Assembly (NCBI GenBank): GCA_963841515.1
Contig: CAWJDB010000010.1
Location: forward strand, 431,237-495,236
Direction: 5' to 3'
Origin: Pirellulales bacterium
Lineage (GTDB): Bacteria > Planctomycetota > Planctomycetia > Pirellulales > Lacipirellulaceae
DNA length: 64,000 nucleotides
Part shown: in pieces, positions 4,028 through 48,484 of the stretch
How the letters are laid out: each line of letters opens with the position of its first letter
How positions within the stretch are numbered: position 1 is the first letter of the stretch
Translations under genes and position numbers: made by a program
The notes under the pieces: generated by a model
What the model saw: only the letters and a program-made list of their open reading frames with translations
Told to the model about the DNA's origin: nothing
Database searches by the model: none

Positions 4028-4140
4028 ACAATCCCTCCGGCCCCCTCGCCCTGGCGGGGAGGGTTGGGGAGGGGGGTTGAAGTGGACGGCGATTCGCCAC
4101 TTCTACACCCCTCCCCTAGCCCCTCCCCATCGAGGGGAGG
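4028..4140. repeat. Two REP-like GC-rich palindromic units (CCCTCCCC..GGGGAGGG..GGGGAGGGGGG)
   Basis: 4030..4078 is ~85% identical to 28905..28958. The GGGGAGGGGGG core is shared with the REP copies that flank the RAYT gene. Confidence 0.6.
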
Positions 4141-4160
4141 GCAGCGGAGGATCGAACATC

Positions 4161-7017: not shown

Positions 7018-7133
7018 CCAATGAACAAATCCCAATGACCAAGCACCAATGACCAAGCACCAATGACCAATGACGGAGGAAAGACTGCTCTCGGCCAATT
7101 GGTCATTGGTGCTTGGTCATTGGTCATTACTCC
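7018..7133. repeat. Long imperfect inverted repeat (hairpin) made of CCAATGACCAAGCA units, lower GC, between pabB and pabA
   Basis: ccaatgaccaagcaccaatgaccaagcaccaatgaccaatgac ... ggtcattggtgcttggtcattggtcatt. Confidence 0.6.
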
Positions 7134-8441: not shown

Positions 8442-8550
8442 TCCGCGCCGCGTCGTGTTAGCCGGCATCGTCTCGATGCCGCGTCCCGACGAGCGATCGC
8501 GCCGCCGCGACCGCGCCGGCCAACTCATCCCCCAAGTTGCAATTCGCCAC

Positions 8551-9510
8551 ATGCCCGTTTTTGTCTCCGCTCCCAGCCGCCTCCACTTTGGCTTGCTCCG
8601 CTTCGAGCAGCCCACAGGCCCCAGCTTCGGCGGCCTGGGCATGATGATCGACCGGCCGCGCCTTGAAGTCGCGGTGTCGGCGGCCGACCAGTGGAGCGTC
8701 GACGGCTTCGCCGCCGCTCGCGCCCGCGAAGCCGCCGAGCGGGCCCTCGCGTCGACCCCGGCCGCCCACAAGCCCTCGGCGCTGGCCCTGCGAGTGACCG
8801 CCGACGCCTCGCTGCACCACGGGCTGGGCGGAGGAACTCAACTGGCGCTGGCCATCGCGGCCGGCGTCCGCGCGCTCGTGGGCCTGCCTCCCGGCGACGC
8901 CGCCACGCTGGCCGCCGCCGTCGGCCGCGGCCAGCGCAGCGCTGTGGGAAGTTACGGCTTCGTCCACGGCGGGCTCATTTGGGAGCTCGGCCGTCAACCC
9001 AACGAGCCGTTGTCCGCGCTGGGCGCCCGCATCGACGACGCCGCCCGATTGGCGGTGCGTACTGGTGGACTCGCCGGACGACTGCGGTCTGAGCGGTCAA
9101 CTCGAACGCGACGCCTTTCAAGCGCTTCGCCCGATGCCGGCCGCGACGACCGAGCGACTGCGGGCGCTGGCGGAAGACGAAATCCTCCCCGCCGCCCGCC
9201 GCGCCGACCTCGATGCCTTCGGCGAAGGCGTGTACCGGTATGGCCGCCTCTCGGGCGAGCAGTTCGCCGCCGTGCAGGGCGGCGCCTTCGCGTCGCCTCA
9301 GATCGGCCAGCGCGTGGCGGCGATTCGCGCCCTGGGCGTGCGCGGCACGGGACAATCGTCGTGGGGGCCGACAGTGTTTGCCCTCGTCGCGAGCCAGGCA
9401 GAGGCCGACGCGCTGATGCAGGAACTGAAAGGGCACCCCGCGACCGCCGGCTGCATCATCGACGCAGCCCGGCCCGACAACCACGGCGCGCCTTTCAGCA
9501 TCAGGCCCGC
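8551..9510 (+). pseudogene. beta-ribofuranosylaminobenzene 5'-phosphate synthase-like (MptG, GHMP-kinase fold); frameshift near 9055
   Basis: MPVFVSAPSRLHFGLL and GLGGGTQLALAIAAG (GHMP-like) are in frame 8455. The continuation DSPDDCGLSGQLERDAF...GTGQSSWGPTVFAL is in frame 9065. Confidence 0.5.
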
Positions 9511-9571
9511 CCCGAGGGTAATCGCTTTTCAACCGGGCCGCCAAACCGCCGTCCCCGAAAAGCCAAAGAAT

Positions 9572-9605
9572 GTTGCTGAAAATGGCCGCGCACTTTGCTA
9601 CGGTG
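9572..9605. repeat. 32-bp repeat GTTGCTGAAAATGGCCGCRCACTYTGCTA (partner at 16529..16560)
   Basis: Near-identical direct repeat that brackets the mobile-element-rich segment. Confidence 0.55.
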
Positions 9606-9668
9606 GGGAAAGGGGGGGAAAGGGGGGGGGAGGGGGGAAAGGGGACATTCTACTTTATTGCCCCCTTC
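9600..9668. repeat. REP-like element copy a (..GGGGGGGAGGGGGGAAAGGGGACATTCTAC)
   Basis: G-rich run ending in GGGGACATTCTAC. It is inverted relative to copies b and c and sits at the 3' side of the RAYT gene. Confidence 0.6.
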
Positions 9669-9859
9669 CGCGGCCGACCCCGCGGCCGCAGCGTGAATTC
9701 CAGCCCGAGCTTCCCTGCCGTCCGCCGCTGCCACCTCGGCGCACCAAAAGGACTGCCCCGCACCACGCTCGTCCGCAGCGCCGCCAGTTCCGCCTCGGTC
9801 TGCGGCTGGTTCACCCACTGGAGCCAGTCGGCGCCGCGGGGAACCGGCCCCGGGTCCAG

Positions 9860-10340
9860 TCGCGGCGCCTCGACGCCGGCCGGCAGCACGACCAATCGAC
9901 GACCACGGCCAACGCTCCGCCTTCCGCACGCCCAGCGACTTGGCCCGCACGGGATTGCGCTCCACGTAGCGCAACACCGCCAGCAAATGTTCGTCGCGCT
10001 GAATGGGAAACGCCTTGAACCGACCCTGCCACACATGGCCGCTCGTGCCGTAATGCCGATGGTAGCGCCGCACGTGGCTGGTCAAGAGCCACTGCATCCA
10101 GCGGCTCAAGTCGCCGCCCTCGCGCGGCCACAGCACCAGGTGAAAATGATTGGGCATCAGCGAGTAGCCGACGATGCGCATCGAGACGTTCTTGACCCGT
10201 TCGCCGGCCTCGACCATCAGCTTCAGAAAGGCGGCGTAGTCGTCGTCTTTGTGAAACACCTCCTGCCGACCGTTGCCGCGGTTCAGGACGTGATAACAGT
10301 AATTGCCGGCCGAAGCCCGAGCCGTGCGAGGCATGCCCAC
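9860..10340 (-). CDS. REP-associated tyrosine transposase (RAYT; IS200/IS605 TnpA-like HuH Y1 transposase)
   Basis: YHVLNRGNGRQEVF...VGYSLMPNHFHLVLWP...HVWQGRFKAFPIQRDEHLLAVLRYVERNPVRA. The ORF reads on to 9501, but the domain ends at ~160 aa. Confidence 0.75.
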
Positions 10341-10369
10341 AAGCTAGTCCAGCCGCCAGGTCGTGTCAA

Positions 10370-10398
10370 GAAAAGTAGAATGTCCCCCTTTTCCTCCC
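10370..10398. repeat. REP-like element copy b (TAGAATGTCCCCCTTTTCCTCCCCC)
   Basis: Reverse complement of copy a. It lies just upstream of the RAYT start. Confidence 0.55.
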
Positions 10399-10618
10399 CC
10401 GACGCTGCGGACCTACGAGATGGTCTGCCTTTATCTGCAAGGCTGGGCCGATCAGCAGGAGCTGTTGGCGCAGCCTCGAAAAACTGAAGCCTCACGTCGC
10501 CTAGGCCCGCTCTTGCTCCCGAGCCGGCTCGCCTGATGCTGCGCCCTTCTGCCGCGCGGGGGCCGCTTCCTGCGCGCCGCCGCCGCCACCTCCTCAAGGC
10601 AGTCGTTTGAACGCGCGC

Positions 10619-10962
10619 TCAACGACCCTCACAATGCCTTGGGGCAACTCCAGAGCCGAACAGCCGTGAGAATGTCCCCTTTCCCCCCTTCGTGGCGAGG
10701 CAGACGATCCCTGCCAAACCCATCAACACGAGGCCGATCGAGGCTGGTTCCGGCACCGATTCTTGGTAGGCATGGGCATAGTCAAACCCGGATGCCGAAA
10801 TGATGGACCATCCCGTGATCGGTTCGCCGGTCAGGGCGTCGGTGACACTCGTGATCCCGCCCCACTTCAGGGTGTTCCCAAAAGCGCCGATGAACGATGT
10901 CTCGAATAGATTCCCATCTGGACCTAACGCAGAATTATAACTGTTGCTGGTTGTCCTACCCT
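10619..10962 (-). pseudogene. C-terminal fragment of a PEP-CTERM protein truncated by the IS66-family insertion; REP copy c (10662..10692) lies in its 3' tail
   Basis: ...QESVPEPASIGLVLMGLAGIVCLATKGG. The ORF continues straight into the IS terminal repeat, and the upstream remainder resumes at 12489. Confidence 0.45.
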
Positions 10963-12488
10963 GTAACCGTTCACGCCCTGGGGAGCAGTGACGGGGCTTT
11001 TTGGCGTGCGAAGTGGGCGTGCACGGCGGCGGCGACGAATTCGAAGGCGTTGCGTTTCTGTTGACGGCAGGTTTCGATGACGGTGAGCATCGTTTCGGCA
11101 AAGCGGCTGCCGCCGGCGCTTTGCGTGCCAAACGAGAGTTTCCGCCAGATCACGGCGTGGCGCAAGGCGCGCTCGCTGGCGTTGTTGGTCGGTTCGACGC
11201 CCTCCACGCGGACGAACGTCCACAGCCAATCGCGATGGTCATAGAGTTCGCGACACATCCCCGCGATCGATCGGTTACCGCTGCTGGCCCCGCGCAGCAG
11301 CACGCGTTCGACCTCGCGGCGGACCGGCGCCATGCGGCGGATGAAGGCCGTCCGCGTGATCGTGCCGTCGCGATAATTGGCCCAATGCTCGAACAGCTTG
11401 CCGGCGGCGCGGCGGAGGTCGTACCCGAGCCGTTTGGCCTGACCGTCGCCGCCGTCGATCAGGGCTTGAAAATCGCGTTTCAAATGCGCCCAACACCATT
11501 GCAAACGGCCGGTGTGCCAGTACATTTTGGCTCGATCGCAGGTCACCACGCCGCCGAACTCCGCCGTGAGCAGATCGACCAGCGCCGTCGCCTCGCGCAT
11601 AGCGCGGACCGCAAACACGGTGAAGGTCCGGGCCACGAACGTCCACAGCCACGCCTTCCTGTTTTGTTCCTTGGTCGCCGTTTCGTCGATGCTCAGTCGG
11701 TCCTGCGTCGGCAGTTGAGCGGCCAACTCGTCGTATGCCGGCCGCAGGGCCGCCGTCGCCTGATGTTGCATCTTCACCGTCAGCGCCGGGCAGCACGGCT
11801 GACCCGCGAGCGCCGAGAAACTCGGCCGTCCGCCGCTTGCTTTGTCGATAGTAGGCCATCAACAAGGCGACCAGCGCCGTCAGCCGCGGACCCGACTGGC
11901 CCTGCGGCACGCCGGCCGGCAACTCCGCGCACGTCGTTTCGCCGCAGCACGGGCACGCCAGCCGATGTCGCCGGTACTCGGTGACGTGCGGCTTGATCTC
12001 GGGCAGTTCCCACACCTGGTGACGCAGCGGGTCGGGATCGCGGCCGGTCAGCTTGCCGCCGCAGCGCCGGCACTCCGCCGGCTTGAGTTCTTGCACCTCG
12101 TCGCAGTCTTCGCTCGGAACGAGCGGCCGCTCGTGTTTCGCGTGGCCCGGTTGACCGCCGCGGCGCTTCGTCGATTTCCGCTTCCGCGGCGGCGGGGCCG
12201 GCCGGGCGTGCGGATGCTGCGTGCTCGGTGGCAGCGAGGAGTTTTGCGGCGTCTTGCCCTTCACTTGTCGTCGCAGGTCGTCCAACTCCGCTCGCAGGTC
12301 GTTCAGCTCCGCCCGCAGCCCGGCGATCTCCGCCAGCAAGACACGGATGATCTCCTGCCCTCCGGCGACTGGCGAGCGATGACGTTATCAGAAACGTTGC
12401 ACCACATGCCCCATGGTGTCGCCGAAAAAGCCAAGGCAAGTAAAGATCAATTTCCCTTCCAAAAGCTCCCCAGGGTGTGAACGGTTAC
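10963..12488 (-). mobile_element. IS66-family insertion sequence (single-ORF type)
   Basis: 24-bp terminal inverted repeats GTAACCGTTCACGCCCTGGGGAGC / GCTCCCCAGGGTGTGAACGGTTAC starting with GTAA. An IS66 transposase lies inside. Confidence 0.7.
10971..12339 (-). pseudogene. IS66-family transposase, split into two frames near 11780
   Basis: The N-terminal zinc-finger/leucine-zipper part is in 11275..12339. The C-terminal DDE part (WAHLKRDF...NNASERALRH) is in 10971..11777. Confidence 0.7.
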
Positions 12489-14374: not shown

Positions 14375-14847
14375 GGGAGCACCCTTTCGCTGGAGTTGGA
14401 TTCAAGCGGATCGTAACCCCGTGGAGGGTTTGCACGCAGTTACAAAGTGACTCGGTCCCCAAAAAAAGCTGCGTCTTGAGCCAGGGCCGAGGGCACTGAG
14501 TGTAACAGGTCTGATAAGCAACAAGTCTCGAATTATCGCCAAGACGCGAAGTTCGCCAAGAATAAGAATTAACTCACTCCAGTTCGGCACGGCGTTTGAA
14601 ATTGCTCATTCGACATTTCACCTAAGAACTGAGCCTCAATCCTCGGCGGAATCGCCAACCGCACTCGAGAATGTGGAACACGGGGACAGCCACACATCGG
14701 CGGGGGGAACACGGGGAGAACCCAGCCAACTGGCGACGAGCTACGAGGGTGCTACCGTCGCTGGTGCCCAGGCCGGTTCGGCCGTCGGCATTCAAGCCAA
14801 AGGAGAATACTTGCCCGTATAATATAAGGGTAATATAAGGGGACGCA

Positions 14848-16363
14848 GCTCGAATGGCACTCGGATAGCTCTAACGTCGGTGCATCAAACGTTTTCGTGC
14901 GAGGCGTCGGGGTTCGCGGAGGTGTTTGTACTGTTTAGGCCTGCGTTTGACGAGCCGCGGCTCAATTCGGTCGGGTCGATCGGCGACGCGGTGGCTGCCG
15001 ATCATCCAGAGGAGAGCTGCGTAGAGCCGATCAGCATTGCGCGAGTCGGCGATCACCAGGCCCAAGAACGCGTTGATTGACTGCATCGCTCCTTTGAAGC
15101 TGAGCTGATGCGGCGCAACGCCTGCGGACAGGGCCGCTTCCAGCATCAAGCCGCGGATCAAGTTGTAGGCTAACAGGTGCGCATAGAACTCTTTGCGCAC
15201 GGTACTCGGCTTCTTGCAGCGTAAGCGCTCCATTTGCATGTGCGTCTTGAGCTTCGCAGGTGCAGTTCGGCGTCCCAACGACGGCGATAGAGGTTGGCCA
15301 GGTCTTCCGCCGGATAGGCGATCGGATCCACCAGCGTGGTCGCCAGCAGGATGACCCGCGGGCGAAAACCTGGCTGGTCGACCCGATAACGCAGATGACG
15401 AATCCCAGCGAGCGACGGCAACCGCTCGTACGTCGGCCGATCCATCCAGGCAGGGCCTGCGTCGGCTTCTGATAGACACGTCAACTGGTCGGCGTCGCCC
15501 GAGCTTCAGTCCGGTGCGAAAGTCGATCTTGCGTGAGCTGGCCTGGGCGCACCAGGTCGACGCGGGCGTCTCCGCAGCAACGCAAAGTCCCAGAAGGACG
15601 CATAGTATCGATCGGCCAGCGCCACTTCGCCCGGCCGGCAAACTATCGAGCAAGCGGCGAAACAAGTTGTTTTCGCCGGTCTGCTTCCCTTCGTAGGGGC
15701 CGATCGCCACCTCGACGACCGCTCCTACGGCCAGCGAAAAGACGACCACGATCCCGCGATCGGAAAGCCGATGGCTCTCCGCTTGAATGGACTGTTGCGG
15801 ATATTCGCGCTGGTTGTCCGGCGTGTCGGCCATCGATGATGGTCGAGCCGTCGACGACCTTGACCGCTCGGCCGAGCCACTGCCAAGCCCGGTCGGCACT
15901 ACAACGCCAGTTCCTGGCCGGTGGAACGCACCAATCGACAAGAGTTGCTCGGGCAGCCGCTCGCGCGCTTCGCAGTAACTGTTGGTGTCGGGATGGCACG
16001 GCGGGAGGTTCTGCGAGCCGCCAGAAGTTCAGCTTGGCAACAGCTTCACGGCACGAATGGTCTGCACCACGACCTGGCTGAGGAACACCCACAGCGTGAC
16101 CGCCGGAGAGTAGACCCGTTCTCGAAACTCGTGTTGCAACCGCTGGCAGGCCGCAATTTACACTTTTCCGAAGACAAACGCTCTGCTGAAAAACAACCCC
16201 TGACAGCTATGCGCCAGTCGTGAACCGCGGCGCGCAATTGCGCTTCCGACGCATCCAAACATCTCACAACCTCCTTGTTATGGCTTGGCATCGGTCCACG
16301 CCAACCATCTCAAGGAGGTTGCTTTCAATCCATATCAATTCAACTCACAAACACTTACGACTA
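14848..16363 (-). mobile_element. IS4-family insertion sequence
   Basis: 18-bp terminal IRs CGAATGGCACTCGGATAG (14849..14866) and CTATCCGAGTGCCATTCG (16345..16362). Flanking ~10-bp direct repeat GGACGCAGCT(C). Confidence 0.6.
14871..16090 (-). pseudogene. IS4-family DDE transposase broken into at least three frames
   Basis: Pieces in 14871..15941 (..RIEPRLVKRRPKQYKHLREPR), 15170..15484 (YRRRWDAELHLRS) and 15643..16092 (VVDGSTIIDG). Confidence 0.6.
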
Positions 16364-16528
16364 TCCGAGTGCCATTCGGGACGCAGCTCATTACAACGTC
16401 TGTCTCTCCATCATCGGAAATCTGCGTCATCGGCGGACACGTTCCTCTTGATCCGCGTCCTCGGCGAGCCTCCGCGGTCAATTCCTTCTCCGAGTCTGCG
16501 CGGCTCCGCCCAAAACGTTCTCAAAAAA

Positions 16529-16560
16529 AGTTGCTGAAAATGGCCGCACACTCTGCTAAG
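16529..16560. repeat. Second copy of the 32-bp repeat GTTGCTGAAAATGGCCGCACACTCTGCTA
   Basis: 30 of 32 nt match 9572..9605. Confidence 0.55.
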
Positions 16561-16859
16561 CTGCTCATGGTGTACGTCTGTGTACACGTGCAGTTCTTTG
16601 ATAATTGAAAAAGCAGCTCTTAGCTGTTAGCCCTTAGCTGTCAGCCCGAGGGGAGAAATGCGCGCTCACCCCGGCGTGGGATCGCCGACGCGGCACGCTA
16701 GTTTTGGCGTTCCAATACAACGTGCGTGCGGCGCAAACGCCGCGAGTATTGGACCGGCCGCAGGAAAGAAATGCCGCGGTTCGTCGGCTCACAGCGCGCT
16801 GCGGGCGATCAAAACCCACCGGGGTTTTGGCGTAAAAAACTGGGACCCCCGCGGGCTCC

Positions 16860-16928
16860 AATTCCAAAACCCTACCGTAGCCGAGTCTCTCCGAGACTCG
16901 AATCTCCGCGGCTCAAAGAGCCGCGACC
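16860..16928 (-). terminator. Tandem GC-rich hairpins downstream of dapA (minus strand)
   Basis: CGCGGCTCTTTGAGCCGCG and CGAGTCTCGGAGAGACTCG hairpins followed by GGTTTTGG. Confidence 0.35.
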
Positions 16929-16936
16929 ACGTGGAA

Positions 16937-17890
16937 TTACTTGGCCGCCAATTGCGACCCGCCCGTCCGCTTCGCTGGCGCCGGGCCACGCCCTTCGCCG
17001 AGCAGGCCGTAAGCCACGAGCGTCTTGCGGAGCGCCGCCTTCTGCGGCGCATCCAGCGGCGTCATCGGCAGCCGCATCTCGCCGGTGTCGCGGCCGAGCA
17101 TTTTCATCGCCGCCTTGATCGGGATCGGGTTGGTGGACAGACCCGAGCATGTCGCGGCAGAGCGGGAACAGCTTGCGGTGCCACTGCCGCGCCTCGGCCA
17201 GGTTGCCGCGTCGAAGGCCTCGATCAGCGCGATCATGTCCCGCGGCACGATGTTGCCGACGACCGAGATGACGCCCCGGGCGCCGATCGCCATCAGCGGC
17301 AGCGTCAGGCTGTCGTCGCCGCTGAGCACGGTCAGGTTCGGTCGGCGCGATGATCTGCGAGGCCTGGTCCAGCGAGCCGGTGGCTTCCTTGACCATCGTG
17401 ATGTTCGGCAGTTCGGCCAGCCGGGCGATCGTCTCCGGCTCGATGTTCTTGCCGGTGCGGCCGGGGATGTTGTAGACGCAGATGCGGCAGATGCCGACTG
17501 CCTCGGCCAGGCGCTTGAAGTGCTGGTAGAAGCCCTCCTGCGTGGGCTTGTTGTAGTAGGGGGCGACGACCAGCGCCGCGTCGGCGCCGGCCTTCTCGGC
17601 CAACTTCGTCAGCCGCAGGGCCTCGGCCGTGCTGTTGGAGCCGGTGCCGGGCATGACCTTGATGCGCCCGCCGGCGATCTCGCACGACGAACGGCGATCA
17701 CGCGCTCGTGCTCTTCGTGGGTGAGCGTCGGCGACTCGCCGGTCGTGCCGACCGGGCAGAGGCAGGTCGTGCCGGCGGCGACCTGAAACTCGATCTGCTC
17801 GCGGAAGCTTCGTAGTCGACTTCGCCGTTCTTGAACGGCGTGACCATGCGCCACCGACAGGCCGGCAAATGCTTCGCCTTTGGTCGTCAT
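16937..17890 (-). pseudogene. dapA: 4-hydroxy-tetrahydrodipicolinate synthase, spread over three frames
   Basis: N-terminus [11 protein letters not shown]...[17 protein letters not shown] in 17609..18181. Middle [20 protein letters not shown]...NIPGRTG in 16872..18044. C-terminus [23 protein letters not shown] in 16937..17329. Confidence 0.7.
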
Positions 17891-18084
17891 GCGGGCAGGC
17901 TCCTGATGCTCGCGGGGGACGAGCCGAGTGCGCGGGACGACTGCAATTTGCGTGACGTGGCGGAAGATCGGCGTACGCACGCGACAATTGGCGCCACGGC
18001 GAGGATGTCGTCGCGCTGGCAATAGCCGGCCCGTGCGATGCCATCGGCGGACGTCAGGGGATGTCACCGATATGCCGTTACGTG

Positions 18085-28904: not shown

Positions 28905-28958
28905 CCCTTCCGGCTCCCTCCCCCTCCGCGGGGAGGGCTGGGGAGGGGGGAAATTGTG
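28905..28958. repeat. REP-like element (CCCTCCCCCTCCGCGGGGAGGGCTGGGGAGGGGGG)
   Basis: Homologous to 4030..4078. Confidence 0.6.
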
Positions 28959-31188: not shown

Positions 31189-31259
31189 AAGTCCAAGAGC
31201 CGGATATTGGACATTCTACGCTCGCTCGGTCGCGTGCGGGTAGGTGCAACAGTACGCGC

Positions 31260-31301
31260 GGCAGGAGTCGAACCTGCAACCCCGGCTTCGTAGAATTTTC
31301 A
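31260..31301 (-). repeat. Partial copy (3' 42 nt, anticodon stem to acceptor) of tRNA-Arg(ACG); direct repeat of 48410..48452
   Basis: acgcgcggcaggagtcgaacctgcaaccccggcttcgtag is identical, apart from one indel, to the 3' part of the tRNA at 48410..48484. Confidence 0.7.
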
Positions 31302-33028: not shown

Positions 33029-33147
33029 GACGACAATCGCCTTTGCTCGATCCCATGTCCGGAACGCGCGACGCTAACCATGTCACTGAAGCGTGCGCAC
33101 CGCTGGGCCCGGCAACCCTCGACCTTGCTTGAAGCTGCTTGAAAAAA

Positions 33148-33218
33148 GACGCTGACAGGAGTCGAACCTGTTTCAAGCTGCTTTGTAGGCAGCCGCCTCG
33201 CCGTCAGGCTCCAGCGTC
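33148..33218 (-). tRNA. tRNA with anticodon ACA (Cys-type, unusual A34)
   Basis: Perfect acceptor GACGCTG/CAGCGTC, anticodon arm GCTGC-CTACAAA-GCAGC, T arm ACAGG-TTCGACT-CCTGT. Confidence 0.55.
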
Positions 33219-33226
33219 AATAAAAT

Positions 33227-33298
33227 GCCCTCGCCAGGAATCGAACCTGGTCTTCAACCTTCGCACGGTTGCGTGCTGGTCCGGCACACTCCGAGGAC
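33227..33298 (-). tRNA. tRNA-Arg(GCG)
   Basis: Acceptor GTCCTCG/CGAGGGC, D stem GTGT/GCAC, anticodon arm CAACC-GTGCGAA-GGTTG, T loop TTCGATT. Confidence 0.6.
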
Positions 33299-33303
33299 TC
33301 AGT

Positions 33304-33375
33304 ACCCAGTAGAGGAATTGAACCCCTTCTTCGACGTTCGAAGCGTCGCGTGCGATTCCGGCACACTCACCGGGC
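33304..33375 (-). tRNA. tRNA-Arg(TCG)
   Basis: Anticodon arm CGACG-CTTCGAA-CGTCG, T loop TTCAATT, acceptor GCCCGGT/ACTGGGT. Confidence 0.6.
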
Positions 33376-33381
33376 GAAAGC

Positions 33382-33453
33382 GTCTCGACTAGGATTCGAA
33401 CCTAGACCCGCCGCTTAGGACGCGGCTGTGCGTTCCCGTAACGCTTCCGAGAC
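33382..33453 (-). tRNA. tRNA-Arg(CCT)
   Basis: Acceptor GTCTCGG/TCGAGAC, D stem GCGT/ACGC, anticodon arm GCCGC-GTCCTAA-GCGGC, T arm CTAGG-TTCGAAT-CCTAG. Confidence 0.65.
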
Positions 33454-33459
33454 TCAAGG

Positions 33460-33530
33460 GCCGGCGATAGGATTCGAACCTACATTGGGCTCATTACAAA
33501 TGAGCTGCTTCCCCATCAAGCCACGCCGGC
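33460..33530 (-). tRNA. tRNA-Thr(TGT)
   Basis: Perfect cloverleaf: acceptor GCCGGCG/CGCCGGC, D GCTT/AAGC, anticodon GCTCA-TTTGTAA-TGAGC, T GTAGG-TTCGAAT-CCTAT. Confidence 0.8.
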
Positions 33531-33539
33531 ATAGGAAGC

Positions 33540-33608
33540 AGGCCCGCCAGGATTTGAACCCGGTGCGTCAGTTTTGGAGGCTGACTGCTCTCCCAGGAGC
33601 ACGGACCT
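33540..33608 (-). tRNA. tRNA-like gene with 9-nt anticodon loop (CCTCCAAAA); identity unclear
   Basis: Acceptor AGGTCCG/CGGGCCT, D arm GCTC-CTGGGA-GAGC, stem GTCAG/CTGAC, T arm CCGGG-TTCAAAT-CCTGG. Confidence 0.4.
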
Positions 33609-33646
33609 GTAAAAGCACCCGGGCGGCCGACCCGGCGCCGATCAAA

Positions 33647-34237
33647 TCACTTCTGCAATTCCACGTTCCAGTACGCCTCGCTGATGAACTTCGACCAACT
33701 CTCAAGACGAACCTGCTGATCGGCGTACACCGGCCTCCACGTTGGACACGTCGGCGCCTTCTTGAGGTTCATGTCCGCCTGCTTCGGCGTCCGGTCGGCC
33801 TTACGCTTATTGCAGGCAATGCAGGCGAGAACGCAGTTCGTCCAGCTCGAAACGACTCCCCGAGCGCGAGGAACCACGTGGTCGATCGTGAGCTCTTCGC
33901 CGCCCGGGTTGACGCCGCAATACTGGTACTGAAAGCGATCTCGCTTATAAATGTTCCGCCGACCGAACGTCACCGCTCTGATCGGCAATCGATCGAAACC
34001 CGTGCGCGTGATGACTTCCGGCACGCGCAACCGGAAGTTAACGCCGCTCATGAACGGAGCTCCGTCCCGCGGTCGCAGCCGCGACCAATCGTCCCACGAG
34101 AACGTCTGGTAATCGGCCGCGTCGACGACGCGCAGCATCTTTCCACAACAGCACGAGCGCACGCGCTGTGGTCGCGACGTGCACGGGCTGCCAGTTCTTG
34201 TTCAGAACGAGCACAGGTTGTTGTAGTGAAGTCATAG
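33647..34237 (-). pseudogene. HNH endonuclease embedded in the tRNA array; frameshift near 34140
   Basis: N-terminus MTSLQQPVLVLNKNWQPVHVATTARALVLL in 34038..34334. HNH core YQYCGV...LTIDHVVPRARGG..CVLACIACNKRKADR in 33647..34162. Confidence 0.65.
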
Positions 34238-34249
34238 CTACTCCCATGC

Positions 34250-34337
34250 GGAATGGGCAGGATTCGAACCTGCAAGGCTGTTGAAGGCTCGGCCGGCTTC
34301 CAAGTGGGGTTTCGTCGCCAAGTCGATTTGCCATTCC
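34250..34337 (-). tRNA. Class II (long variable arm, 88 nt) tRNA; anticodon not resolved (Leu/Ser-type)
   Basis: Perfect acceptor GGAATGG/CCATTCC, T arm GCAGG-TTCGAAT-CCTGC. Confidence 0.5.
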
Positions 34338-34348
34338 GTGTTGTCAGC

Positions 34349-34419
34349 CGCCCGCCGATGATTCGAACATCGCCTCACGATTTAGAAGATCGTCGTGCGT
34401 TCCACCACACTCGCGAGCG
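34349..34419 (-). tRNA. tRNA-Arg(TCT)
   Basis: Acceptor CGCTCGC/GCGGGCG, D GTGT/GCAC, anticodon ACGAT-CTTCTAA-ATCGT, T CGATG-TTCGAAT-CATCG. Confidence 0.75.
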
Positions 34420-34423
34420 CAGG

Positions 34424-34496
34424 GTGACCGAGCGGACTCGAACCGCCTCATACCTGGTTCACAGCCAGGCCCCTCGACCACTTCGGGATCGGTCAC
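34424..34496 (-). tRNA. tRNA-His(GTG)
   Basis: Acceptor GTGACCG/CGGTCAC, discriminator C, anticodon CCTGG-CTGTGAA-CCAGG, T loop TTCGAGT. Confidence 0.7.
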
Positions 34497-34499
34497 AGC

Positions 34500-34584
34500 G
34501 GAAGGCATGGGATTTGAACCCACACGGCTATTACGCCGCACGGTTTAGCAAACCGGCCCGACAAACCGTATTCGGCTACCTTCC
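34500..34584 (-). tRNA. tRNA-Ser(GCT), class II
   Basis: 85 nt. Acceptor GGAAGGT/GCCTTCC, anticodon CGGT-TTGCTAA-ACCG, variable arm CGGC-GTAATA-GCCG, T GTGGG-TTCAAAT-CCCAT. Confidence 0.7.
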
Positions 34585-34592
34585 GTTCGAGT

Positions 34593-34662
34593 GGAGCGCC
34601 GGGGAATCGAACCCCGATTTCCTGAGTGCAAACCAGGCGTCGTCCCGTTGGACCAGCGTCCC
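34593..34662 (-). tRNA. tRNA-Ala(TGC) with G3:U70
   Basis: Anticodon CCTGG-TTTGCAC-TCAGG, T CGGGG-TTCGATT-CCCCG. Short D loop and one acceptor mismatch. Confidence 0.55.
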
Positions 34663-34675
34663 GTACTTTTGAGTG

Positions 34676-34746
34676 GAGGATACCGGTCTCGAACCGGTGA
34701 CCTACAGACTGCCAGGCGAGTCGCTCACCCAACTGAGCTAATCCCC
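34676..34746 (-). tRNA. tRNA-like with 8-nt anticodon loop CGCCTGGC (GGC/Ala-like?)
   Basis: Acceptor GGGGATT/TATCCTC, D GCTC-AGTTGGGT-GAGC, stem GACT/AGTC, T ACCGG-TTCGAGA-CCGGT. Confidence 0.4.
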
Positions 34747-34751
34747 CGACA

Positions 34752-34821
34752 GGCCCAAGCGAGAATCGAACTCGCACCACCGCACTACCAATGCGGTGCT
34801 CTGCCACTGAGCTATCAGGCC
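34752..34821 (-). tRNA. tRNA-Thr(GGT)
   Basis: D GCTC-AGTGGCA-GAGC, anticodon CCGCA-TTGGTAG-TGCGG, T GCGAG-TTCGATT-CTCGC. Confidence 0.75.
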
Positions 34822-34825
34822 GTGG

Positions 34826-34894
34826 GGGGACATGGGAGTCGAACCCAATGTTTCAAGCTTATGAGGCTTCCGTGAAACCGTTTCACTCGTCCCC
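34826..34894 (-). tRNA. tRNA-Met(CAT)-type
   Basis: Acceptor GGGGACG/TGTCCCC, anticodon AAGC-CTCATAA-GCTT, T loop TTCGACT. The D arm is short. Confidence 0.55.
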
Positions 34895-34900
34895 GTCAGT

Positions 34901-34971
34901 AGTCCCTGCTGGAATCGAACCAGCTGTCTTCTCCGTGTCATGGAGACGCCGTGCCGGTGGGCCAAGGGACT
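34901..34971 (-). tRNA. tRNA-Val(GAC)
   Basis: Perfect acceptor AGTCCCT/AGGGACT, anticodon TCTCC-ATGACAC-GGAGA, T GCTGG-TTCGATT-CCAGC. Confidence 0.75.
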
Positions 34972-34980
34972 ACACGAGTG

Positions 34981-35054
34981 GTCGGGAGAGGGCTTCGAAC
35001 CTCCAAAATCACCGCGCTCTTGACGCGATCGCTTTTCCAGTTTGCGTACCCGAC
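34981..35054 (-). tRNA. tRNA-like; anticodon loop TCAAGAG (AAG with C33?) uncertain
   Basis: Acceptor GTCGGGT/TCCCGAC (6 of 7 pairs), palindromic stem CGCG/CGCG, T loop TTCGAAG. Confidence 0.35.
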
Positions 35055-35060
35055 CGAAGT

Positions 35061-35128
35061 AGCTAGCCCCGGAGTTGAACCGAGCGCGCCGAGCTTATGG
35101 GGCTCAAGTGGGCCAACCTGCGCTAGCA
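35061..35128 (-). tRNA. tRNA(CAT)-like with C33 and a compact D arm
   Basis: Anticodon TGAGC-CCCATAA-GCTCG, variable GCGCG, T CTCGG-TTCAACT-CCGGG, palindromic acceptor GCTAGC. Confidence 0.45.
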
Positions 35129-35130
35129 AT

Positions 35131-35202
35131 GACCCAAGCGGGATTCGAACCCGCGATTCCCGCCTTGAGAGGGCGGCGACTACTCCGCAAGTCCACTGGG
35201 CC
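35131..35202 (-). tRNA. tRNA-Glu(CTC)
   Basis: Acceptor GGCCCAG/TTGGGTC, anticodon CCGCC-CTCTCAA-GGCGG, T GCGGG-TTCGAAT-CCCGC. Confidence 0.7.
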
Positions 35203-35210
35203 ATATAAGT

Positions 35211-35297
35211 GAGACGTGAAGGAATCGAACCTCGCGTCGCCACCCCGCTGTTTAGTGACTCGTGTTCTACAGACACGGCCGCGAGGGAACGCCTCTC
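35211..35297 (-). tRNA. tRNA-Tyr(GTA), class II; acceptor with two mismatches
   Basis: 87 nt. Anticodon CGTGT-CTGTAGA-ACACG. D region TTCCC..GG and T arm GAGG-TTCGATT-CCTTC resemble bacterial tRNA-Tyr. Confidence 0.55.
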
Positions 35298-35304
35298 GTC
35301 GAGT

Positions 35305-35379
35305 GCCAAGGGCGGGAGTCGAGCCCGCGGAGTCACGAAGGTTTGAGCTTCGCCGCTTTCCCTGTTGCGTACCTTGGCA
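35305..35379 (-). tRNA. Class I tRNA with anticodon CAA (Leu codon UUG; unusual because Leu tRNAs are normally class II)
   Basis: Perfect acceptor GCCAAGG/CCTTGGC, anticodon CGAAG-CTCAAAC-CTTCG, T GCGGG-CTCGACT-CCCGC. Confidence 0.55.
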
Positions 35380-35385
35380 GCAAGC

Positions 35386-35459
35386 GCCCCCGACGCGATT
35401 TGAACGCGCGATCTCCTGCGTGACAGGCAGGCGTCCACTCCGGGCTGGACCACGAGGGC
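35386..35459 (-). tRNA. tRNA-Asp(GTC)
   Basis: D GTCC-AGCCCGGAGT-GGAC, anticodon CCTGC-CTGTCAC-GCAGG, T loop TTCAAAT. Confidence 0.75.
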
Positions 35460-35465
35460 AATAGT

Positions 35466-35540
35466 ACCGGCGGCAGGATTCGCTCTCTGCACTGTTCTCG
35501 TTCTAAGCGAGACGCCTCCTTCCGTTGGGCTACGCCGGCT
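35466..35540 (-). tRNA. Class I tRNA-like with anticodon TAG (Leu codon CUA) and an aberrant 10-nt T loop (AGAGCGAATC)
   Basis: Acceptor GCCGGCG/CGCCGGT, anticodon TCTCG-CTTAGAA-CGAGA. Confidence 0.45.
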
Positions 35541-35545
35541 TAAGT

Positions 35546-35617
35546 CGTCCCGAGTGGACTCGAACCACTGATCGTCTCCTTGTAAGGGAGCTGCCTTTGC
35601 CGCTAGGCCACGGGACG
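35546..35617 (-). tRNA. tRNA-Val(TAC)
   Basis: Perfect acceptor CGTCCCG/CGGGACG, anticodon CTCC-CTTACAA-GGAG, T AGTGG-TTCGAGT-CCACT. Confidence 0.7.
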
Positions 35618-35623
35618 TAAGGC

Positions 35624-35709
35624 GGAAGCGGTGAGACTCGAACTCACAAGCGGGTATAAGCCGCCAGCCGTTTTCAAGACGGTTTCCTCAGCCATTCGGA
35701 TCACTTCCG
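35624..35709 (-). tRNA. tRNA-Ser(TGA), class II
   Basis: 86 nt. Acceptor GGAAGTG/CGCTTCC, anticodon CCGT-CTTGAAA-ACGG, T GTGAG-TTCGAGT-CTCAC. Confidence 0.65.
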
Positions 35710-35714
35710 TAAGC

Positions 35715-35785
35715 AGCGGCGGTCGGTATCGAGCCGACTCCAACTGCTTCAAAGGCAGTCATGCTGACCTTTACACCACGCCGCA
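35715..35785 (-). tRNA. tRNA-Gln(TTG)
   Basis: Anticodon ACTGC-CTTTGAA-GCAGT, T GTCGG-CTCGATA-CCGAC, acceptor GCGGCG/CGCCGC. Confidence 0.65.
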
Positions 35786-35792
35786 CCAAACA

Positions 35793-35861
35793 GGCTGAGC
35801 GCCGAATCGAACGGCGTCCGACTGGTTCAGAGCCAGTCGTGCGACCACTACACCAGGGGCC
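35793..35861 (-). tRNA. tRNA-Gln(CTG)-like with defective acceptor stem (pseudo-tRNA or indel error)
   Basis: Anticodon ACTGG-CTCTGAA-CCAGT, T GCCG-TTCGATT-CGGC. The 5' GGCCCCT and 3' GCTCAGCC ends do not pair. Confidence 0.35.
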
Positions 35862-35864
35862 AAT

Positions 35865-35934
35865 ACGGGTGCGCGGAATTGAACCGCGGCTGTCAGTTTG
35901 GAAGACTCGCCGTGCTGCCGCTACACCACACCCG
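35865..35934 (-). tRNA. tRNA-Trp(CCA)-like; the 3' strand of the anticodon stem is scrambled
   Basis: Acceptor GCGGGTG/CACCCGT, D GTGT/GCAC, loop TTCCAAA after GAGTC, T CGCGG-TTCAATT-CCGCG. Confidence 0.4.
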
Positions 35935-35942
35935 CAGAAGCG

Positions 35943-36025
35943 GAAGCGGCAGGAGTTGAACCTGCAAGGCAGTTACGCTCGACTGTTTTCGAAACAGCTG
36001 CCGTCGCCAATCGGCTGGCGCTTCC
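35943..36025 (-). tRNA. tRNA-Ser(CGA), class II
   Basis: Perfect acceptor GGAAGCG/CGCTTCC, anticodon GCTGT-TTCGAAA-ACAGT, T GCAGG-TTCAACT-CCTGC. Confidence 0.65.
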
Positions 36026-36032
36026 ATGAAGC

Positions 36033-36108
36033 TGCGGAGGCTGGGATCGAACCAGCGCACGAACGTGTTTAACAGACACGCGCAACTACCAGCAGTTGCC
36101 CCTCCGCA
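36033..36108 (-). tRNA. tRNA-Asn(GTT)
   Basis: D CAAC-TGCTGGTA-GTTG, anticodon CGTGT-CTGTTAA-ACACG, T GCTGG-TTCGATC-CCAGC. Confidence 0.7.
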
Positions 36109-36115
36109 AAGGAGT

Positions 36116-36188
36116 CTGCGCGGTCGGATTTGAACCGACGATCTCGACGCCCCGAACGTCGCGGGATGCCCAACTTCCCCACGCGCAG
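36116..36188 (-). tRNA. tRNA-Pro(CGG)
   Basis: Perfect acceptor CTGCGCG/CGCGCAG, D GGGA/TCCC, anticodon CGACG-TTCGGGG-CGTCG, T GTCGG-TTCAAAT-CCGAC. Confidence 0.75.
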
Positions 36189-36197
36189 TCAAACGAA

Positions 36198-36267
36198 GCA
36201 TCCGGCGGGTTACGATCCCGCACCTCCACCTTGGCAAAGTAGCGTGCAACCACTACACCACGGACGC
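36198..36267 (-). tRNA. tRNA-Gly(GCC) with unusual T loop ATCGTAA
   Basis: Acceptor GCGTCCG/CGGATGC, D GTGT/GCAC, anticodon CTACT-TTGCCAA-GGTGG (two G-U pairs). Confidence 0.55.
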
Positions 36268-36298
36268 AGTTTTGGCTTGTCAAATTGTCAAAGACCAA

Positions 36299-36370
36299 AG
36301 GATCGGGTCAGAATCGCTCGTGACGTTGCGACGGTACGAGCGTCGCGTCTTACTACTAGACGACAGATCC
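36299..36370 (-). tRNA. tRNA-Thr(CGT)-like with variant T loop CGAGCGATTC
   Basis: D GTCT-AGTAGTA-AGAC, anticodon CGACG-CTCGTAC-CGTCG, acceptor GGATCTG/CCGATCC (one mismatch). Confidence 0.45.
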
Positions 36371-36381
36371 AGGTTTGCAGT

Positions 36382-36452
36382 GGGGCTGGTGAGAGTCGAA
36401 CTCACAACGTCCTGGTTAAAAGCCAGGTGCTTGGCCTTTCAGCTTCAACCCC
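36382..36452 (-). tRNA. tRNA-Lys(TTT)
   Basis: Acceptor GGGGTTG/CAGCCCC, anticodon CCTGG-CTTTTAA-CCAGG, T GTGAG-TTCGACT-CTCAC. Confidence 0.7.
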
Positions 36453-36461
36453 ATGTCAAGT

Positions 36462-36534
36462 TGGCGGCCTGGGAATCGAACCCAGATCGTCGAGTTAATA
36501 AGACCCAACAGGTCAAGTGAGACCGTCGCCGCCC
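36462..36534 (-). tRNA. tRNA-like, anticodon probably TAT (Ile AUA-type) in loop CTTATTA; 1:72 mismatch
   Basis: Stem TGGGT/ACTCG with two G-U pairs, T CTGGG-TTCGATT-CCCAG. Confidence 0.4.
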
Positions 36535-36537
36535 AAT

Positions 36538-36610
36538 GGCTTCGGCGAGATTCGCGCCTCGCACCAAATCGATTAAAAGTCGAGTATGCTGCCGTTGACA
36601 CCACGAAGCC
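36538..36610 (-). tRNA. tRNA-Lys(TTT)-like with 8-nt T loop GCGCGAAT
   Basis: Perfect acceptor GGCTTCG/CGAAGCC, anticodon TCGA-CTTTTAA-TCGA. Confidence 0.5.
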
Positions 36611-36669
36611 GATTCAGGCTCGCGACGTCGCGTTTCATTCGAAGTTGCATATCGTTTCTCCTAACAAGT

Positions 36670-36740
36670 GGTAGCCCTGCGAATCGAACGCAGCGCAACT
36701 CGCTTATCAGGCGGATTTGGGCAACCAGCCCTCGACTACC
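36670..36740 (-). tRNA. tRNA-Ile(GAT)
   Basis: Anticodon loop CTGATAA, T CTGCG-TTCGATT-CGCAG, 3' end GGCTACC-A resembles bacterial tRNA-Ile. Confidence 0.65.
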
Positions 36741-36754
36741 GTCGTCGTGTATCA

Positions 36755-36860
36755 GTCGGGCGCCTCGGGGTCGAACCGCCAGTATTCAATTTGTTGGCTC
36801 CTGCTCCCATGGCTCACCGTGCTCCCATCTGCACCTCCGCCCGATTACAAGTCAGCATGG
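36755..36860 (-). other. Unresolved spacer with a T-loop-like motif (GGCGGTTCGACCCCG); possibly a degenerate or indel-damaged class II tRNA
   Basis: No consistent cloverleaf could be drawn. Confidence 0.2.
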
Positions 36861-36865
36861 CAAGT

Positions 36866-36939
36866 ACCCTGTGGGGGATTCGAACCCGCCTCCTGCGGCT
36901 TGAAAGGCCGCCATCCTAAAACCAGTAGACCAACAGGGC
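36866..36939 (-). tRNA. tRNA-Glu(TTC)
   Basis: Anticodon GCGGC-CTTTCAA-GCCGC. The D region GTCT...AGGA matches the bacterial tRNA-Glu pattern. Confidence 0.65.
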
Positions 36940-36999
36940 GTGTTAAGTCGTTTCGTGTTTCTTAAGTTGAGTTTTTGCGCGCACCGCAAGCGCATTAGT

Positions 37000-37070
37000 G
37001 GGCTGGGAGGCGCTCGAATCCTCGTCTGTGGTTCTTCAGACCGCCGCTAGACCGTCTCAGCTACCAGCCC
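37000..37070 (-). tRNA. tRNA-Phe(GAA); first gene of the array
   Basis: Perfect acceptor GGGCTGG/CCAGCCC, D GCT/AGC, anticodon GCGGT-CTGAAGA-ACCAC, T loop with a 2-nt insertion (ATTCGAGCG). Confidence 0.6.
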
Positions 37071-48341: not shown

Positions 48342-48409
48342 AAAAACGCCGCACCGCCTAACGTCGGCAGGTGACAGAAACCCTTGTCCGGCGTGGACTT
48401 CGATCTACT

Positions 48410-48484
48410 ACGCGCGGCAGGAGTCGAACCTGCAACCCCGGGCTTCGTAGGCCCGTGCTCTATCCAGTTGAGCTACGCGCGCTC
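48410..48484 (-). tRNA. tRNA-Arg(ACG)
   Basis: GCGCGCG-TA-GCTC-AACTGGATA-GAGC-A-CGGGC-CTACGAA-GCCCG-GGGT-TGCAG-GTTCGAC-TCCTGC-CGCGCG. Confidence 0.8.

Follow-up and report, generated by a model that had tools for sequence, protein, structure and literature searches.

A 64,000-nucleotide (nt) stretch of the Pirellulales bacterium assembly GCA_963841515.1 (contig CAWJDB010000010.1, positions 431,237 to 495,236; the whole stretch is referred to as the window) carries a gene for a tyrosine transposase of the Y1/HUH type, which lies on the minus strand between inverted copies of a short repeat. We think it probable that this locus is a TIRtron, a unit of about 0.75 kb in which a TIRYT gene would stand between two inverted copies of the 21-nt repeat AAAAGGGGACATTCTACTTTT. 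TIRYTs and TIRtrons are a known but little-studied type of element, common in Planctomycetota. Their genes resemble those of the REP-associated tyrosine transposases (RAYTs; REP, repetitive extragenic palindrome), but are flanked by terminal inverted repeats (TIRs) rather than REPs (Di Nocera et al. 2013, BMC Genomics 14:522, PMC3733652). On this reading, the window holds a solitary TIRtron, possibly decayed or mis-assembled, of a planctomycete TIRYT subfamily. Comparison of related sequences showed the combination of predicted gene and repeats to be conserved across many Planctomycetota genomes. In those genomes the repeat is found far more often where the gene is missing; most of these gene-less copies are convergent doublets, which fold as long perfect hairpins.

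A transposase gene between inverted repeats

The right-end TIR (copy a) lies on the plus strand at 9631..9656 and contains the core GGGGACATTCTAC exactly (9641-9653). The left-end TIR (copy b) lies on the minus strand at 10372..10400 and reads GGAAAAG-GGGGACATTCTAC-TTTTC, again with an exact core (10375-10387) and with one extra G. Over 29 nt, the two arms (9628-9656 and 10372-10400) are 83% complementary, and a Pfam search placed a Y1_Tnp domain on the minus-strand open reading frame (ORF) between them (E 1.5e-11). When up to two mismatches were allowed, GGGGACATTCTAC matched the window five times against 0.66 expected, and none of 100 shuffled sequences reached five matches. Since the repeats are significant, the arms are inverted and the domain lies between copies a and b, the core observation of an earlier note on this DNA, a RAYT-like gene bracketed by inverted motif copies, is real.

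The same note had listed a third copy further out. Copy c (minus strand, 10667..10689, oriented as copy b) is identical to copy a over 21 nt, AGGGGGGAAAGGGGACATTCT (inverted arms 9631-9651 and 10669-10689, 100%), and its core at 10667-10679 on the minus strand is a two-mismatch copy of GGGGACATTCTAC. It comprises only the outer half of the repeat, however, diverges beyond it and does not qualify as a complete 21-mer unit. Its sequence overlaps the 3' end of a PEP-CTERM ORF (10619..11131) that is truncated by an adjacent IS66 element. The remaining matches at up to two mismatches (31207 and 58135) are without flanking A/T tracts and at chance level. The dispersal that had been claimed for this family was found in other genomes, not in the window, where no further unit appeared in 64 kb at up to six mismatches of the 21-mer. 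Neither the sequence between copies b and c (10400-10666) nor the flank beyond copy c was similar to the loci fetched from other genomes or to the rest of the window.

An intact transposase had been assigned to 9860..10340. By homology, the gene instead runs from 10334 to 9650 on the minus strand (685 nt, 228 amino acids (aa)), and is readable only after removal of one base near 9891. A protein rebuilt from the two reading frames served as query and found thousands of homologous proteins. Among the best 120, lengths range from 209 to 250 aa (213-230 in most), identities are 66-79% and coverage of the query is 89-100%, with all 228 residues covered in many of them. When aligned with homologues, the N-terminal 147 residues (MPRTARAS ... 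WPWSSIG) fell in the frame of ORF 9501..10340 and the conserved 80 C-terminal residues (..PRGADWLQWVNQPQTEAELAALRTSVVRGSPFG..LRPRGRPRKGAIK, followed by the stop codon) in the frame of ORF 9650..10036. When the gene was aligned with five homologous genes at the nucleotide level, one extra base was located at about 9891, in ATTGG[T]CGTG of the minus strand. Four of these five genes have lengths that are multiples of three, the length of the window gene equals 1 modulo 3, and the GC-phase plot switches frame at 9891. Thus, because the homologue alignments place an extra base here, the true gene is 10334 to 9650 and is not intact as assembled. The catalytic Y1/HUH core upstream of the shift (9892..10334, beginning with the ATG at 10334) is complete and includes the HUH motif NHFHLV, WQGRF and the catalytic-tyrosine motif RYVERNPV. 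The C-terminal extension (9650..9890, ...DWLQWVNQPQTEAELAALRTSVVRGSPFG...LRPRGRPRKGAIK) is out of frame with this N-terminal part, and the stop codon (TAG, minus strand, 9650-9652) lies inside copy a. The frame shift marks either a decayed copy or an intact gene hidden by an assembly indel.

Probable assignment to the TIRYT branch

Of the 26 TIRYTs of Di Nocera et al., 20 were placed in subclass 2.1 of TnpA-Y1 (Quentin et al. 2018, BMC Genomics 19:475, PMC6006769), which corresponds to RAYT Group 1 of Bertels et al. 2017 (GBE 9:2110, PMC5581495). The signature of this subclass consists of NH[YF]H, W[EQ] and Y[IV]xxNP, a median length of 238 aa and a C-terminal extension (PMC6006769, Table 1). 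The window gene has the corresponding motifs NHFHLV, WQGRF and RYVERNPV, and the NHFH, WQ and YVERNP residues are invariant in 57 homologues. As in TIRYTs, the homologues measure about 230 aa and have a conserved C-terminal extension, which the window encodes in another frame; the TIRs stand at fixed distances, with the 3' copy overlapping the end of the gene. Many TIRYT TIRs share GGGGWSAS, that is GGGG[AT][CG]A[CG] (PMC3733652). The window TIR GGGGACAT agrees with this consensus at seven of eight positions, the eighth being T rather than C/G, and the TIR of a 35%-identical paralogue at another locus (L092), GGGGTCAG, agrees at all eight. Judged by motifs, length and TIRs, the predicted window protein fits the TIRYT branch.

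In NCBIfam, the family REP_Tyr_transpos (NF047646) matched the window ORF with 59.5 bits and the full-length homologues with 61-67.5 bits, below its equivalog cutoff of 80, and transpos_IS200 reached 13.3 bits, below a cutoff of 55. In the AlphaFold model of the homologue P0001 (79% identical to the window protein, pLDDT 86.7), residues 170-215 form a confident four-helix extension (pLDDT >90), which is followed by the basic tail LRPRGRPRK. The best fold match of this model, over the N-terminal 130 residues, was E. coli TnpA_REP in complex with a REP hairpin (4ER8, E 1.6e-7); the ISDra2, IS608 and IS200 transposases came next. 4ER8 was also the sole sequence match of the protein in the PDB (E 0.003). 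A Pfam search of the C-terminal extension gave no DnaA_C or helix-turn-helix match and only a sub-threshold AT_hook. A similar GRPRK tail is present in the L092 paralogue.

Conservation of the element in other Planctomycetota

Eight loci were selected by protein similarity alone, from Pirellulimonas nuda, metagenome-assembled genomes (MAGs) of Thermoguttaceae and Pirellulaceae, and metagenomes. Both repeats were present at their canonical positions in five of them. In the 13 full-length elements compared, some 40-47 nt separate the left repeat from the ATG downstream of it. Directly behind the repeat comes a TTGAC-like hexamer and then, after about 17 nt, a TAnnnT hexamer that stops just 6-7 nt short of the ATG. 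The position of the left repeat is kept in L001, L002, L004, L013, L051, L060, L065, L112, L127 and L130. In 11 of the 13 elements, the right repeat is found at the stop codon or a few bases after it, and in L002 the stop TAG lies inside the repeat, as in the window. Additional direct copies of the left-hand repeat occur in L005, L027, L040 and L127. Gene neighbours differed at every locus examined. The L092 paralogue has a repeat of its own, GGGGTCAGAGTAC, in the same layout of A-tract, core, T-tract and -35 hexamer; thus, repeat sequence and protein subfamily change together. At another locus (L047, 3690-5050), two TIRYT paralogues stand back to back and share a repeat at about 4400, between their start codons; their identities with the window protein are 61% and 41%.

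The window has a candidate promoter, read from the sequence, at the homologous place (minus strand, 10341..10369): a -35 hexamer TTGACA (10369 to 10364), which adjoins copy b about 40 nt upstream of the ATG, a 17-nt spacer and a -10 hexamer TAGCTT (10346 to 10341). As only 6 nt separate the -10 from the ATG, the mRNA would be leaderless. The site fails a strict scan because TAGCTT matches the -10 consensus at 3/6 positions. At the homologous position in L004, the promoter scores 11/12 (TTGACA-18-TATAGT, ending 7 nt before the ATG), and TTGAC-like and TAnnnT hexamers stand at this place in most full-length elements.

We then compared 188 distinct units from the window and the related loci. Their consensus is (G/A)(A/G)AAAAGGGGACATTCTACTTTT(C/T), and positions -5, -4, +14 and +15, which lie outside the search pattern, are 73-93% conserved. 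The only self-complementarity within the units is a near-invariant AAAAG...CTTTT around an 11-nt centre. No covariation was detected beyond AAAAG/CTTTT: outer positions were at most about 3 standard deviations above shuffles and no better than slid controls. When units were folded singly on both strands, copies a and b gave z-scores against shuffles between -0.8 and -1.8, and copy c gave +1.1 to +1.4. We therefore rejected a REP-type stem-loop in the single unit, as copies a, b and c have no significant fold and the outer positions of the 188 units pair no better than slid controls. The gene is flanked by TIRs and not by palindromes of the REP type.

The outer flank of some units is duplicated in tandem. 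Duplications of 5-8 lineage-specific bases plus AAAGGGG were found in 33 of the 188 units (17.6%) versus 2.2% of random 19-mers, for example GCAACGAAAAGG-GCAACGAAAAGG-GGACATTC, and they also occur 3' of the gene in L001, L002, L004 and L127. In the window, G-rich sub-repeats adjoin the right-end repeat on the plus strand (9604..9640, about four iterations of GGG(G)AAAGGGG) and form a G-quadruplex-type run. This tract, GGGGAAAGGGGGGGAAAGGGGGGGGGAGGGGGGAAAGGGG, is a four-fold, G-rich version of the same outer-flank duplication.

The repeat without the gene

One genome per species was scanned for the exact 17-mer, which occurred in at least 118 stretches. About 100 of these came from Planctomycetota (Planctomycetia and Phycisphaerae) and, among the matches listed, a few from Nitrospira and other bins. 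The 118 listed loci were sorted by arrangement, allowing three mismatches. Convergent doublets, 16-152 nt from start to start, accounted for 51 loci and single units for 49; gene-sized pairs were found in nine (seven at 704-719 nt, the others at 790 and 837) and other arrangements in the remaining nine. A homologous gene or gene fragment was nearby in only 20 of the 118, several of these being N-terminal remnants, and truncated remnants of the gene adjoin repeats in L011, L021, L039, L066, L067 and L099. The doublets fold as perfect hairpins of 18-25 bp (-18 to -33 kcal/mol, z -7 to -12). On one contig (L010), two doublets agree fully in core and spacer and differ in their flanks, and one MAG has the motif on at least five contigs. 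A phage search yielded one match in 2.9 million viral contigs. No Rfam match was obtained in 9300-11000 of the window or at the doublets of seven loci. The pattern of the gene-less repeats is the one to be expected of a family of non-autonomous derivatives of the full unit.

In four loci of one MAG, VGYL01 (L008, L041, L063 and L122), and in L115 and L081, doublets at 37-39 nt spacing share an extra one-sided flank (...CCCGGCCC...AAACCACCGCCGG). Because this flank is conserved, the doublet of this group appears to be part of a longer repeated element, about 90-100 nt in length.

Some published TIR families are moderately abundant as singles and dimers (PMC3733652), and for the 16-mers beside Group 1 genes about 12 occurrences per replicon are reported (PMC5581495). 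The present family resembles published TIRYTs in this respect, with copies of its TIR elsewhere as singles and dimers in moderate numbers. It differs from them in its core GGGGACATTCTAC, which is conserved over a wide range of Planctomycetota, and in the predominance of gene-less doublets (51 of the 118 listed loci). It also differs from the report of Quentin et al., who found no REPs near subclass 2.1 genes (PMC6006769). The GGGGACATTCTAC repeat was not found in the text of PMC3733652 or in its text supplements, the TIR sequences being printed in the figures, outside that search.

It is possible, although in our view somewhat less likely than not, that a TIR-associated RAYT branch, reported without REP partners, maintains gene-less hairpin doublets similar to REPINs (hairpin-forming REP doublets). 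Their 21-nt core would be near-invariant within the phylum Planctomycetota (classes Planctomycetia and Phycisphaerae), and Nitrospira and other bins would supply outliers. For recognition, the enzyme would use its Y1 core together with a C-terminal helical domain and a tail, similar to an AT-hook, that reads the A/T tracts beside the repeat core. If true, the sequence of a REPIN-RAYT-type association would be conserved across an entire phylum, whereas the REPINs of Proteobacteria are lineage-specific.

Alternative explanations

The earlier note had described the locus as a classic REP-RAYT-REP arrangement. In that case it would be a REPtron, in which a canonical RAYT (Group 2/3) flanked by REP palindromes seeds a population of REPs, bacterial interspersed mosaic elements (BIMEs) or REPINs. 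The locus shares the topology of a REPtron, inverted repeat copies on either side of one tyrosine-transposase gene, and both the best NCBIfam match (REP_Tyr_transpos) and the closest solved fold (TnpA_REP, 4ER8) come from such systems. Moreover, the doublets of other genomes resemble REPINs, and, as in the REPIN-RAYT systems of Pseudomonas (Bertels & Rainey 2011), the repeat is dispersed mainly as gene-less inverted hairpin doublets. The reverse strand of the core even starts with GTAG, a tetranucleotide typical of REPs (PMC3733652), but it lies inside the unit and not as a 5' foot outside a stem. The unit is not itself palindromic, as single units fold no better than shuffles and do not covary, and the repeat sequence is common to families and classes rather than lineage-specific. 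In contrast to canonical RAYTs, the protein has an extra C-terminal domain with subclass 2.1 motifs, a subclass near whose genes no REPs were found (PMC6006769), and scores below the equivalog cutoff (59.5-67.5 versus 80). The 64 kb contain no additional copies, and the supposed relatives of the repeat at 4 kb and 28.9 kb are without the core. We therefore consider a REPtron very unlikely; the TIR branch fits the locus instead.

Pfam names the domain of the window protein 'Transposase IS200 like', and an ordinary autonomous insertion sequence (IS) of the IS200/IS605 family, present once by chance, could likewise explain a locus that lies within mobile-element debris (IS66 at 10963-12488, IS4-like at 14836-16393) and whose gene neighbours differ in each genome examined. 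The TnpA proteins of this family (IS608, ISDra2) share the single-domain HUH/Tyr fold and the presumed chemistry on single-stranded DNA hairpins. However, they carry a Y---Q motif, where the window protein has Y---NP, and DH[VI]H in place of NHFH; they measure about 150 aa, and the window protein scores only 13 bits against the transpos_IS200 cutoff of 55. Their elements have asymmetric subterminal hairpins and no TIRs, whereas the ends found here are terminal inverted repeats of 21-29 nt. They are often accompanied by tnpB, which is missing here, and are multi-copy and near-identical within a genome, unlike homologues that are 66-79% identical. An element of this kind is extremely improbable.

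A domesticated, immobile host gene has to be weighed as well. The left copy would then be an operator, the right copy part of a terminator, and the doublets intrinsic terminators that work in both directions, with a stem and a T-run on each strand, and that are maintained by selection and not by transposition. Domestication is the general view of RAYTs (PMC5581495), and the fixed placement of the repeats, the left one adjoining the -35 and the right one overlapping the stop codon, agrees with such roles. So does the A-tract / 18-25-bp stem / T-tract build of the doublets, which has the shape of a bidirectional terminator. Protein identities of 66-79% across families are consistent with slow, housekeeping-like evolution, and three of the eight homologues persist without intact repeats. 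Independent terminators, however, would not have one identical 21-nt sequence throughout the phylum. Identical doublets in different flanks on one contig, truncated gene remnants beside repeats and tandem duplications at the outer element boundary indicate copying events. Domestication alone is thus unlikely in our view. Co-option of the hairpins as terminators would be compatible with a TIRtron, and the two roles are not exclusive.

Several points weigh against the locus being a TIRtron of the kind described. The 64-kb window has only three copies of the repeat, all at the transposase locus; therefore, activity of the family in the source genome is unsupported, and the window offers no evidence for the active or recently active family that had been proposed. 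The transposase gene is frameshifted as assembled, and the -10 of its putative promoter is weak (3/6 matches). Three of the eight loci selected by protein similarity keep an intact gene with one or both repeats lost or degenerate, which indicates that the gene can persist without repeats. The AT_hook match in the basic C-terminal tail is sub-threshold (Pfam, E 0.6-0.8). The scan required an exact 17-mer, and its figures refer to the matches listed, so that neither the copy number of each genome nor the taxonomic range is complete; some of the non-planctomycete matches may be due to chance or to mis-binned contigs. Binding, cleavage site, strand and mobility of TIRYTs are all drawn from analogy, and we know of no TIRYT for which biochemical activity has been shown.

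Proposed mechanism

By analogy with IS608 TnpA and E. coli TnpA_REP, the enzyme would act as an HUH/Tyr nuclease-ligase on single-stranded DNA. It would recognize the repeat core, probably as two inverted copies paired into a hairpin on single-stranded DNA. The C-terminal helical domain and the basic RPRGRPRK tail may assist by contacts with the A/T tracts that flank the core. The genomes have about 64% G+C, yet A4-5 and T4-5 tracts always bracket the core, which makes it reasonable to infer a tail that would read these tracts. Cutting and rejoining at the outer boundary would allow gene-less doublets, and possibly the whole unit, to be copied or moved in trans. Given the outer tandem duplications, the cut would be expected inside the G-run or directly behind it. 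Binding of the enzyme at the left repeat, beside the -35, might in addition autoregulate its own transcription.

Other features of the window

The earlier note had extended the repeat family at the transposase locus to palindromes at 4030-4138 and 28905-28958, which were said to have the same GGGGAGGGGGG core. These units do resemble each other, but they are without ACATTCTAC. Nor is the 11-mer GGGGAGGGGGG enriched in the window (five found versus 1.84 expected; 3 of 100 shuffles reach five), and in copy a it belongs to the window-specific G-rich sub-repeat, outside the conserved core. Three units make up this G/C-rich palindromic family, two of them inverted at 4030-4141 and one at 28905-28950, each with the pattern CCCTCnCCC-N3-4-GGGGAGGG-N2-3-GGGGAGGGG. 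The inverted pair forms a strong composite hairpin between genes (z -4.5). A search for the pattern found no occurrence in 800 kb of related Planctomycetota loci. On the basis of alignment, motif statistics and this pattern search, we rejected the palindromes as members of the TIR family; they may constitute a lineage-specific REP-like family with a partner gene of its own.

Four genes around the transposase are also disrupted in frame. The two domains of a GHMP-kinase-like gene fall into separate ORFs in different frames (N domain, 8455..9579; C domain, 9065..10018), and the IS66 transposase is divided between two ORFs (11275..12339 and 10971..11777). The IS4-like element at 14836-16393 is badly broken, and a DapA-like gene (16872-18044) has at least four frame changes. 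Genes elsewhere in the window, such as those for a type II secretion system (T2SS) protein F and a histidine kinase, are intact. This cluster reflects either local assembly indels or a decaying region. Because repeated shifts hit a normally essential gene, local assembly indels are suggested at least as much as decay.

The IS66-family element (10963-12488) is bounded by 24-nt inverted repeats, GTAACCGTTCACGCCCTGGGGAGC, that are 96% complementary. It is inserted into a PEP-CTERM protein gene, of which only the C-terminal part is left (10619-11131). A 42-nt direct repeat, CAAAGAATGTTGCTGAAAATGGCCGCGCACTTTGCTACGGTG, occurs at 9564-9605 and 16522-16563 with 86% identity and contains a promoter-like TTGCTG-N17-TGCTAn; its first copy adjoins the outer edge of copy a and its second lies about 130 nt outside the IS4-like element. 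ACCAATG sub-repeats make up a perfect inverted repeat at 7032-7124, with arms of 27 nt (ACCAATGACCAAGCACCAATGACCAAT and its complement) and a 26-nt spacer. On the minus strand, 29 tRNA genes lie within 3.9 kb (33147-37070). The 3' part of tRNA-Arg(ACG) forms an exact 33-nt direct repeat at 31253-31285 and 48409-48441 (site 48409-48482). These repeats look like attachment repeats of an integrated element of about 17 kb that carries the tRNA array.

Significance

To our knowledge, TIRYT or Group 1 is the largest and least understood branch of RAYTs, and none of its members has been studied biochemically. For the window itself, the outcome is the smaller one: we could correct an annotation and separate two unrelated repeat families. 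The wider pattern is more interesting, as a phylum-deep repeat core with predominating doublets occurs in a branch reported without REP partners. In the planctomycete subfamily, the gene, its promoter, both ends and many gene-less hairpin derivatives can be aligned across many genomes, and the 21-nt unit and the hairpin of about 50 nt offer concrete substrates for a first activity test. The subfamily thereby provides a case for asking whether pairs of repeat and enzyme are inherited vertically over very long times.

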